NCBI GenBank assembly: GCA_002388665.1
Contig: DGMY01000040.1
Coordinates: 8,093 to 72,092, forward strand
Source of the DNA: Opitutia bacterium UBA4506
GTDB taxonomy: Bacteria > Verrucomicrobiota > Verrucomicrobiia > Opitutales > Puniceicoccaceae
Reading direction: 5' to 3'
Length of the DNA stretch: 64,000 bases
Under the pieces are notes generated by a model, which did no database searches, was not told where the DNA came from, and worked only from the letters and a program-made list of their open reading frames with translations. The position numbers were made by a program, and so were the translations under genes. Shown piece after piece: positions 14,296-18,677 of this stretch. Numbering within the stretch: the first letter of the stretch is position 1; each line of letters begins with the position of its first letter.

Positions 14296-14586
14296 TCAGC
14301 CGCGGTCGATATGGCCGAGGTCGCGGCGGGGATCGAGTTGATCGCGCACCCGTTTTTTCAGTTCCTTGATCTCGGGAAAGCCTCCATCGACCGTTCGGTC
14401 CCAGAGAACGAGATCATTGTAGGTGATGAGGAAGGTTCCCGATGAGTCACTGGGACGAAGGGTGACCTGCGCCAAGTCATTCTCGAAAGTGCTCAGAAGC
14501 TCTTGAGACATCCAAGCGGAACGCAGCAGCCATTTGCAGCCCGGGCAGTAGGTGATGGTAATCGCTGGTTTTTGAGTATCTTTCAC
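14296..14586 (-). CDS. SelT/SelW/SelH (Rdx) family protein
   Basis: ITITYCPGCKWLLRSAWMSQELL, LWDR..DGGFPEIKELK..VRD..DP.RDLGH.D; GTG start at 14586 assumed. Confidence 0.9.
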   Translation of the reverse strand: MKDTQKPAITITYCPGCKWLLRSAWMSQELLSTFENDLAQVTLRPSDSSGTFLITYNDLVLWDRTVDGGFPEIKELKKRVRDQLDPRRDLGHIDRG

Positions 14587-14784
14587 ACCTCGATTGAATA
14601 CGGACGGAGCAGGAGACCGCAATCACGGAGTCGGCATCTCACCGGGTGAATCCACCCAGGCGTGGGGCTGGTGGTAGCTGTTCCCCTGAGCGCAGGCCGA
14701 TGAGATACGGGAAGAACGGGATTTTTTCGGCGACGAATCGTTTTTGGATTCGCCCGAAGGCGATAGGGGGTTTACGAAAGGAGA

Positions 14785-15213
14785 ATGAAAATTTCACTCG
14801 GAACAGATCACGCTGGTTACACCCACAAGGAAGCGGTCAAAACCCATCTTGCCGGCCTCGGCCATGAAGTACTGGATTTTGGCACTGATTCTGTTGAAGC
14901 AGTTGATTACCCCGACTACATCCGCCCAGCTGCTGAGGCAGTATCAACCGGTGAATCGGACCTAGGTATCGTATTTGGTGGCAGTGGTAACGGTGAAGCG
15001 ATTACTGCCAACAAAGTGAAAGGCGTTCGCTGCGCACTCTGCTGGAACATCGAGACCGGTGAGCTGGCGAAACAGCACAACAACGCAAATGTACTCTCAT
15101 TTGGCGCCCGGCAGACACCGATCGATGACGTAATCAAGATCATCGACGCTTGGCTGGGAGCGGAATTCGAGGGTGGACGCCACCTACGGCGCATCAATAA
15201 AATTGAACAATAG
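14785..15213 (+). CDS. rpiB: Ribose 5-phosphate isomerase B
   Basis: GTDHAG, VDYPD, FGGSGNGE (Mycobacterium-type Glu base), HNNANVL, EFEGGRH.RR. Confidence 0.93.
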   Translation: MKISLGTDHAGYTHKEAVKTHLAGLGHEVLDFGTDSVEAVDYPDYIRPAAEAVSTGESDLGIVFGGSGNGEAITANKVKGVRCALCWNIETGELAKQHNNANVLSFGARQTPIDDVIKIIDAWLGAEFEGGRHLRRINKIEQ

Positions 15214-15215
15214 AG

Positions 15216-15869
15216 ATGAATCTCCCTTCCAGTTTTGACATGGAAGGAACATCAAGCTTTGTACCCATTATGGCTGAAATTATGCAGGCAAAAGAAAATC
15301 AAGAGGAAAAGAATCAGGGCGGCTCGCTCTCCGAGATGGTCCAAAAGCGATTCCTCGAGGATCGTAAAATCTTTCTCTGGGGGGAGGTTTCCGACAAGAC
15401 AATGCGGGAAGTCACCGAGAAATTGTTGTTCCTTGAGTCCGACAAACCCGGCGAAGAGATCAAGTTTTACATCAACACACCCGGTGGATCGATTACAGCG
15501 GGTATGGCGGCCTACGATACGATGAAGCTCATTTCGAGTCCCGTTTCGGTCATCGTGACTGGCATGGCCGCTAGCATGGGTTCGATCCTTCTGTCGGGGG
15601 CAGAGAAAGGCCGCCGGTATATTTATCCACACGGGCGGGTTCTCATTCACCAGCCATTGATCAGTGGAACTTTCATGGCTCCTGCCGTGGACATCAATAT
15701 CCAGGCGCAGGAGATGGAACGCATCCGCGAGGAATTGAACAAGATTCTCGCCGAGGCTTCTGGTAAGGATCTGGCGACGATCGAAAATGATACTGACCGC
15801 GATTTCTATCTCACTGCAGAAGAGTCGATTAAGTATGGTCTCGTCGATGAGATCGTGACCTCGATTTAG
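15216..15869 (+). CDS. clpP: ATP-dependent Clp protease proteolytic subunit
   Basis: YINTPGGS, GMAASMGS (Ser), IHQP (His region), DTDRDFYL (Asp). Confidence 0.94.
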   Translation: MNLPSSFDMEGTSSFVPIMAEIMQAKENQEEKNQGGSLSEMVQKRFLEDRKIFLWGEVSDKTMREVTEKLLFLESDKPGEEIKFYINTPGGSITAGMAAYDTMKLISSPVSVIVTGMAASMGSILLSGAEKGRRYIYPHGRVLIHQPLISGTFMAPAVDINIQAQEMERIREELNKILAEASGKDLATIENDTDRDFYLTAEESIKYGLVDEIVTSI

Positions 15870-15881
15870 GGGAGAGATTCC

Positions 15882-16715
15882 GTGAGTCTGGTATTTCAAA
15901 AGTATCACGCCCTTGGAAACGACTATTTCGTCCTCGATCCTTCGAGCGGCGAGTTGCCGGATGTTGAAGGGATTGAAGCAGTGTGCCACCGCAATTTCGG
16001 TTTGGGTTCAGACGGAATCCTATACGGCCCGCTCCGGTCCGAAGTAGCGGATTTTCGCCTGCGGATTTTGAATCCGGATGGAAGTGAAGCGGAAAAAAGT
16101 GGAAACGGGCTCCGCATCTTTTGCCGGTATCTGCACGATCGCGGCGAGGTGACAGATCGACCATTCACTGTGGAAACGCTGGGAGGGATCGTTTCGGCCT
16201 GTATTCACGATCCGGCAGAGAGCATCGAAGTCGAGATGGGTAAAGTTTCCTTTTCCAGCTCGGTGATTCCAGTCGAAGGAGAAGACCGAGAGGTCATCCA
16301 GGAGACTCTGGAAGCCGGGGGAGAGACCGTTGAGTTCTCAGCTGCCACTATTGGCAACCCCCACTGTGTCGTCCTGCGCGATAAAGTGACCGAGGCGGAG
16401 GCACTCCGTCTTGGACCATGCTTGGAGAATCACTCACTCTTCCCAAACCGGACGAACGTACAGTTTCTGGAGGTGATCGACCGCGCCAATATCAAATTGG
16501 AGATATGGGAGCGGGGTGCTGGATACACATTGGCATCGGGAAGTAGTTCGAGCGCTGCTGCATCGGTCGCGCGAAAGCTGGGCCTGGTTGACCAGAGTAT
16601 TACGGTGCACATGCCCGGCGGCCAGTTGACCTTGGAGATTGGCGACGACTATTCAGTCCGGATGACTGGACCGGTACGCCGGATCGGTGAACTGACCTGG
16701 ACGCCGGAAGGTTGA
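15882..16715 (+). CDS. dapF: Diaminopimelate epimerase-like protein with both catalytic Cys replaced by Ser
   Basis: KYHALGNDY, GSDG, NPDGSEAEKSGNG, GNPHCV, ERGAGYTLASGSS, MPGGQL; AGT at 16098 and TCG at 16536 occupy the Cys positions. Confidence 0.8.
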   Translation: MSLVFQKYHALGNDYFVLDPSSGELPDVEGIEAVCHRNFGLGSDGILYGPLRSEVADFRLRILNPDGSEAEKSGNGLRIFCRYLHDRGEVTDRPFTVETLGGIVSACIHDPAESIEVEMGKVSFSSSVIPVEGEDREVIQETLEAGGETVEFSAATIGNPHCVVLRDKVTEAEALRLGPCLENHSLFPNRTNVQFLEVIDRANIKLEIWERGAGYTLASGSSSSAAASVARKLGLVDQSITVHMPGGQLTLEIGDDYSVRMTGPVRRIGELTWTPEG

Positions 16716-17969: not shown

Positions 17970-18677
17970 TTAGGAACGAGAGCGGCGAAGCGCCAGTCCA
18001 CCCAAGCAGGCAAAACCAGCAATGAGAGCGAACGATGAAGGCTCGGGAACGGGGGTGTAGTCGATTGCCAGCGTCGGGCGGGCCGAATTTCCCTCGCGGA
18101 CAAAGAAAAAGATGTCTCTCGTAGCGTTGTTCTCAACATCGAGTTTTGTGAGAAGATAGATCGTTTCTCCGATCGACGATTGGACATAGCTATCGAGTGC
18201 ACTGCCAGTGAAATCGATCTCGGTTCCGCCTGGTGCCGTACCAGGATTCGCGTCTTCGGATGCGAGTAGAGTGGAATAATCGCCGCCCTCAGTGGTCCAA
18301 TCCGTAGTGTCTGTGGCCTTCACCCAAGTGGCCTCGTCGTAGACATAGGGAGTGGTCAGCTCGAAGAGATTCAGTGTTACGTCGCCATTGGTGCTGGTGG
18401 GGTCATCCTTGCCCACTGTGAGCGTAAGAGTAACGCTATTGATGGTTGCACCCGCAAGTAGAGGGTCGCTGAGGTCGAAGGTGAGCAAGCCTCGGAGAAG
18501 ATCACCCGAAGTGGTTGTCTGGCCTACGATTGAATATTCCGCTGCGCCTTGGTTGGAGAATCCATCGCGGATGCCAACCGATTGCAGGTCGCTGCTACCT
18601 GTGTTGAAAATTTCGATGGTGGCCGCTGAGGAGGTCAGGGCGGTAGCGAGAAGAAGGACAGGGGTAATCTGTTTCAT
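17970..18677 (-). CDS. PEP-CTERM surface protein with DNRLRE-like domain
   Basis: Signal peptide; LRGLLTFDLS..INSVTLTL..W...GGD; C-terminal VPEPSSFALIAGFACLGGLALRRSRS. Confidence 0.85.
   Translation of the reverse strand: MKQITPVLLLATALTSSAATIEIFNTGSSDLQSVGIRDGFSNQGAAEYSIVGQTTTSGDLLRGLLTFDLSDPLLAGATINSVTLTLTVGKDDPTSTNGDVTLNLFELTTPYVYDEATWVKATDTTDWTTEGGDYSTLLASEDANPGTAPGGTEIDFTGSALDSYVQSSIGETIYLLTKLDVENNATRDIFFFVREGNSARPTLAIDYTPVPEPSSFALIAGFACLGGLALRRSRS

Follow-up and report, generated by a model that had tools for sequence, protein, structure and literature searches.

The window analysed here, a stretch of 64,000 nucleotides from contig DGMY01000040.1 of the marine, Puniceicoccus-type Opitutia bacterium UBA4506 (Puniceicoccaceae), carries a dapF gene, predicted to encode a diaminopimelate (DAP) epimerase, which lies downstream of a clpP-like and an rpiB-like gene on the same strand (Table 1). 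The start residue of the dapF product matches the starts of its homologues when they are aligned. The clpP-like gene and dapF are probably co-transcribed, with the rpiB-like gene as the probable first gene of the transcription unit. A promoter and terminator scan found no terminator-like site between the clpP-like gene and dapF, and none of its matches exceeded the expectation from shuffled sequence. The tight rpiB-clpP-dapF order, which spans 14785..16715 on the plus strand, was found at none of 80 more distant dapF loci of the same type. As the linkage is not conserved in those distant loci, we take no functional signal from it.

Table 1. Features of the dapF region, in window coordinates
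Feature	Position	Strand	Description	Basis
108-aa ORF	14296..14622	-	CPGC motif	
rpiB-like gene	14785..15213	+	2 nt 5' of the clpP-like gene	ORF list; name read from translation
clpP-like gene	15216..15869	+	12-nt gap to dapF	ORF list; name read from translation
Shine-Dalgarno-like GGGAGAG	15870..15876	+	5 nt 5' of the GTG start	Read from sequence
dapF	15882..16715	+	GTG start, TGA stop, 277 aa, frame intact	ORF list
Codon 73 of dapF	16098..16100	+	AGT = Ser, motif SGNG (EAEK-S-GNG)	HMMER alignment to solved DapFs
Codon 219 of dapF	16536..16538	+	TCG = Ser, motif ASGSS (YTLA-S-GSS)	HMMER alignment to solved DapFs
235-aa ORF	17970..18677	-	Secreted-looking protein	

Two further ORFs were observed on the minus strand of this region. 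In one, the CPGC motif occurs as ITYCPGCKWLL, a context that we take to recall SelW/Rdx-type redox proteins, and the other ends in a C-terminal PEP-CTERM-like sorting signal (VPEPSSFALIAGFACLGGLALRRSRS).

The dapF product matched PF01678 (DAP_epimerase) in two stretches (E = 1e-54), and the NCBIfam equivalog model for DapF, TIGR00652, scored it at 237.5 bits (cut-off 114.65). The families of its proline racemase/hydroxyproline dehydratase and PhzF relatives (PF05544 and PF02567) gave no match, PF01678 being the only family reported. Canonical DapF catalysis uses a thiolate/thiol pair of cysteines, which in Haemophilus influenzae are C73 and C217. An earlier note made from the DNA letters had read serine at both of these sites, from AGT at codon 73 and TCG at codon 219, and the HMMER alignment confirmed that reading: Ser73 and Ser219 occupy exactly the columns of the catalytic cysteines in the solved DapFs 9mro, 8qzy, and 3ejx, and their counterparts in Anabaena 9mro lie in the segments "sepemCgng" and "tlaCgtg". 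The 277-aa protein lacks the Cys/Cys pair of canonical DapF. H. influenzae DapF binds both ends of DAP through Asn11/64/75/157/190, Glu208, Arg209, and His159. The DAP-binding and helper residues are all present here (N13, N64, N75, N159, H161, N192, E210, and R211) and are conserved in Ser/Ser and Cys/Cys sets alike; the motifs GNDY (N13), NPDGS (N64), GNPH (N159 and H161), and ERG (E210 and R211), which had been singled out as kept, are all conserved. By these comparisons, the gene encodes a full-length member of the DapF family carrying a serine pair.

With the catalytic cysteine pair that defines canonical DapF missing, the protein might have changed its chemistry or its substrate and act as another amino acid racemase or as a dehydratase, with meso-DAP being made in some other way. 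Relatives of the same fold do carry out other reactions, among them the O-ureidoserine racemase 7vdy, the hydroxyproline dehydratases, and PhzF. Conservation of every residue that binds the two ends of DAP argues against such a change, as does a score so far above the DapF equivalog cut-off; the genomic evidence bearing on it is given below.

An AlphaFold2 model of the 277-aa protein, built from a 32-sequence clade alignment, reached a pLDDT of 96.1 and a pTM of 0.92 and displays the pseudo-symmetric two-domain fold of DapF with one central helix per domain. Its helices 74-86 and 220-232 start directly after Ser73 and Ser219, respectively. In canonical DapF, the geometry at the helix N terminus tunes the catalytic cysteines, and the model places the two serines in that same geometry. 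Foldseek aligned the model with solved DapFs at TM scores of 0.88 to 0.91 (8qzy, 9mro, and 5ha4), and proline-racemase-like and PhzF structures ranked below all DapFs, at 12 to 17% identity. Structures of the canonical Cys/Cys enzyme come from H. influenzae (1gqz/2gke), Escherichia coli (4ijz), Anabaena (9mro), Arabidopsis (3ejx), and Pseudomonas aeruginosa (8qzy). The protein resembles this enzyme in having PF01678 twice and the same residues for DAP binding, with a structure-based identity of 33 to 38% and TM scores of 0.85 to 0.91 (4ijz_A, 1gqz, 9mro_A, 3ejx, and 8qzy); it differs in C73S and C217(219)S, in clade-specific changes at positions 79, 194, 208, 222, 244, and 265, and in Y15 and K72. 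HMMER and Foldseek searches of the PDB to April 2026 found no structure of a natural Ser/Ser DapF.

It had been suggested that SGNG and ASGSS might mark a conserved clade, and the homologues bear this out. In a collection of 5.8 billion proteins, all 120 nearest homologues (62 to 91% identity) carry Ser/Ser, and the closest named relative is the DapF of P. vermicola at 88% identity. When 1.84 billion representatives of 50%-identity clusters were searched exhaustively with HMMER, 127 of the best 150 (39 to 64% identity) proved to be Ser/Ser; the others of these 150 include 6 Cys/Cys and a few mixed proteins (S/C, T/C, and S/T), and most of the remainder are fragments or local misalignments. The pair was likewise present at 80 of 80 named genome loci retrieved with the clade profile, which represent at least eight phyla. 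These comprise Verrucomicrobiota (Opitutales, Puniceicoccaceae, Limisphaerales, Methylacidimicrobium, and Lacunisphaera), Planctomycetota (Pirellulales and Sedimentisphaerales), Desulfobacterota, Myxococcota (Polyangiaceae), SAR324, Chloroflexota, Armatimonadota, Bdellovibrionales, and Thermoleophilia; no cyanobacterial locus occurred among the 80, nor among the ten cluster representatives whose names were looked up. Within the order itself, 40 relatives were searched (41 genomes with the source genome). Exactly one DapF homologue was found in each of the 37 high-quality genomes of this sample. Of the 38 genomes besides the source genome that gave a scorable match, 36 carry Ser/Ser, G029 carries S/C, and G026 carries Cys/Cys. 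The Ser/Ser gene is retained in two reduced genomes of 0.8 to 0.9 Mb (G013 and G017).

Over the genomic loci as a whole, 116 of 118 have Ser/Ser, and at both sites both serine codon families, AGY (AGC/AGT) and TCN, are in use across the 118. The use of both families at both sites indicates that serine itself has long been kept under selection. In a maximum-likelihood tree, a single split with a support of 0.99 divided 106 Ser/Ser from 9 Cys/Cys sequences, the Cys/Cys sample being small. We take the Ser/Ser clade to be large and old.

This pattern bears on two further readings. One is that the serines stem from an assembly or sequencing error or from a pseudogene decaying in this genome, a reading in line with the concern that the substitutions might be unique to this assembly. 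They are not: the same two serines recur in hundreds of independent assemblies, and the frame of the gene is intact. We found nothing that speaks for an error or pseudogene, and the conservation together with the two serine codon families rules it out, so that its probability is practically nil. The other is that this DapF has lost its catalytic activity and is retained for a nonenzymatic role, for instance as an RppH-activating partner; the E. coli DapF does moonlight with RppH, according to the account in PMC13728532 and PDB entries 6d13 and 6vck. In a dead enzyme, however, one would not expect every substrate-binding residue and both serines to stay unchanged from phylum to phylum and whichever serine codon family is used, nor would such a protein be likely to survive as the only DapF of genomes as small as 0.8 to 0.9 Mb. 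As the pathway of the source genome also needs the DapF step (see below), we consider a dead protein very improbable, if less so than an error.

The source assembly is 99.3% complete and holds a single DapF-family gene. The possibility that a second, canonical dapF might stand behind the variant was therefore not borne out: no other DapF was found in the 99.3%-complete genome, and the Ser/Ser gene is its sole DapF. DapL is present, scoring 676.5 bits on NF004937 against a cut-off of 585; the plant-type DapL model TIGR03542 gave only a weak match to the same protein, which is a clear DapL on NF004937. A LysA-like decarboxylase is encoded outside the window (G000:C12:14325-15716, minus strand) and reached 246 bits on TIGR01048, below the cut-off of 297.9; this sole LysA candidate is, as judged from its sequence, a divergent diaminopimelate decarboxylase. 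MurE is present with a DNPR motif, which marks meso-DAP-adding enzymes.

Other routes to meso-DAP were sought in the same genome. A bypass through meso-DAP dehydrogenase (Ddh) was rejected, as no Ddh was found in the genome. A bypass through an Alr-like DapF2, an enzyme different from DapF (Ashniev/GapMind), was likewise rejected: the Alr-fold proteins of the genome are one true alr product, one 3-hydroxy-D-aspartate-aldolase-like protein, and one probable YggS, with no obvious racemase of the DapF2 type among them. With DapL, a decarboxylase resembling LysA, and a MurE of the DNPR type, but neither Ddh nor a second DapF, the cell needs a step from LL-DAP to meso-DAP, for which the Ser/Ser DapF is the only candidate in the genome. 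DAP itself has been detected by GC/MS in Opitutus terrae and cultured Lacunisphaera strains, and sacculi have been isolated from strain IG16b (PMC5303756); Ser/Ser DapFs are encoded at two loci from Lacunisphaera MAGs in our set (L059 and L087).

The architecture of Ser/Ser genes in other lineages points in the same direction. The Ser/Ser DapF domain is fused to a LysA-type decarboxylase in three proteins (P0138, P0163, and P0158), to a Mur ligase in one (P0143), and to an alanine racemase in two (P0155 and P0168). In a rumen Opitutales locus (L073) dapL overlaps dapF, and in three Polyangiaceae loci dapF, an aminotransferase gene, and lysA are adjacent. Such fusions and linkages elsewhere provide independent genomic support for a predicted role in the DAP pathway. 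The set of fusion proteins (P0126, P0138, P0143, P0155, P0158, P0163, P0168, and P0234) also includes, as partners, a gamma-glutamyl cyclotransferase-like domain and a SAM methyltransferase.

A changed chemistry or substrate is thus opposed not only by the conserved binding residues and the family score but also by a genome without Ddh, a second DapF, or a spare Alr-like racemase, and by the genes to which Ser/Ser dapF is fused or linked elsewhere (lysA, alr, and those for a dapL-type aminotransferase and a Mur ligase). In addition, Ser/Ser DapFs have been reported as active DAP epimerases, on the account in PMC13728532. We regard such a change as improbable, although less remote than a dead protein. 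Where the earlier note left the choice between a Ser/Ser epimerase of unusual chemistry and an enzyme for a different reaction, the first alternative gains from the TIGR00652 score, the kept DAP residues, the sole-copy status, the pathway genes, and the fusions, and the second found no support.

The class to which the protein belongs has already been described. As related in PMC13728532, Lamer, van Belkum, Chen et al. (J Mol Biol 437:169375, 2025, PMID 40774471) reported active DapFs with two catalytic serines and the fold kept; two DapFs occur in Anabaena sp. YBS01, one Cys/Cys and the other Ser/Ser, changing the serines to cysteines inactivates the Ser/Ser enzyme, and the Ser/Ser form may help against oxidative stress. 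The reservation that the variant might already be known as a DapF consequently applies, on that account, to the class. Serine at both sites of an otherwise DapF-like protein places the present sequence in this published class, as far as the class is described in PMC13728532, and it shares with the members described there the serines at both catalytic positions, the overall fold, and the predicted DapF pathway step. In contrast to Anabaena sp. YBS01 as described there, the Ser/Ser enzyme here is the sole DapF rather than one of two with the other being Cys/Cys, and its host belongs to the Verrucomicrobiota.

We therefore propose, with a probability of roughly 0.86, that the gene encodes a housekeeping diaminopimelate epimerase (EC 5.1.1.7) of the natural Ser/Ser class, an ordinary housekeeping member of that published class, and we infer that the 277-aa protein is itself active. 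In the pathway envisaged, DapL would convert tetrahydrodipicolinate to LL-DAP, the Ser/Ser DapF would invert one alpha-carbon of LL-DAP to give meso-DAP, and meso-DAP would then supply both MurE for peptidoglycan and the LysA-like decarboxylase for lysine. The mechanism is likely that of canonical DapF, a two-base 1,1-proton transfer that needs no cofactor; Ser73 and Ser219, each at the N terminus of a central helix, would take over the thiolate and thiol roles as base/acid pair.

As an acid or base, the hydroxyl of serine is far weaker than a thiol. Given this, and given that engineered C73S and C217S mutants exist, activity of a Ser/Ser DapF must depend on context. The engineered H. influenzae enzymes (PDB 2q9h and 2q9j, separate entries) share with the present protein the DapF fold and a serine at one catalytic position, but each of them carries one substitution made in the laboratory in a scaffold adapted to Cys, whereas here both positions are serine and the surrounding shell has co-evolved. 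Helix dipoles and a desolvated, closed active site may enable the serine pair, and the co-evolved second shell (Tyr15, Lys72, Ile79, Gln194, and Ser222, where canonical enzymes have Phe, Met/Gln, Cys, Glu, and Gly, respectively) may tune it, the roles of the individual residues being putative. A natural replacement of a catalytic thiol by a hydroxyl is also found in the cofactor-independent Asp/Glu racemase EcL-DER of E. coli (PMC8142540); that enzyme, however, belongs to another fold superfamily, and only one of its cysteines is replaced, by threonine, which makes the reaction unidirectional (PMC8142540).

A separate question is the source of D-glutamate. No MurI glutamate racemase was found in the whole source genome, and no clear D-amino-acid transaminase, the only proteins of interest being an IlvE (C34:69345-70028) and a weak PabC-like protein (C25:35841-36458). 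A genome without MurI or a recognizable D-amino-acid transaminase raises the possibility that the Ser/Ser DapF might also supply D-glutamate. The Cys/Cys DapF of Chlamydia trachomatis has been reported to be a bifunctional DapF/glutamate racemase (PMC5885031), and the present case resembles it in being a DapF of the PVC superphylum in a genome without MurI (NF038284; PMC5885031). The model for the bifunctional enzyme, NF038284, gave 74.7 bits for our protein against a cut-off of 350. That the Ser/Ser DapFs of these PVC bacteria also provide D-glutamate for peptidoglycan, by analogy with Chlamydia, is in our view a slim chance; if it were so, the Ser/Ser site would be that of a broader-specificity epimerase/racemase and not of a plain DapF.

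According to the textbook view, cofactor-independent amino acid epimerases need a thiolate/thiol pair. The genomic survey shows a thiol-free Ser/Ser form as the sole, essential-looking predicted DapF of a whole order of Verrucomicrobiota and of many further phyla. Annotation rules that demand an active-site cysteine would not apply to Ser/Ser organisms, and neither would cysteine-directed inhibitors of DapF. Since the thiol-free DapF, including its activity, has been in print since 2025 on the account in PMC13728532, the remaining value of this gene is modest; it documents the breadth and age of the Ser/Ser clade and provides a list of positions that change together with the serine pair (15, 72, 79, 194, 208, 222, 244, and 265).

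This list comes from two comparisons. Between 106 full-length members of the Ser/Ser clade and 9 Cys/Cys comparators, position 73 is Ser in 106/106 and Cys in 9/9, and the Ser/Ser proteins have Ile in place of Cys at position 79, Gln in place of Glu at 194, Ile in place of Val at 208, Ser in place of Gly at 222, Met in place of Leu at 244, and Val in place of Ala at 265. In the order-level sample, the Ser/Ser DapFs have Tyr15 for Phe and Lys72 for Met. The two deviating DapFs of the same order were read at some of these positions as well: the Ser/Cys protein, from a reduced genome (L139, G029:C6:41600-42600), has Y15, M72, H194, and G222, and the Cys/Cys protein (L140, G026:C52:600-1900) has F15, M72, C79, N194, and G222. 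Both are possibly intermediates or replacements.
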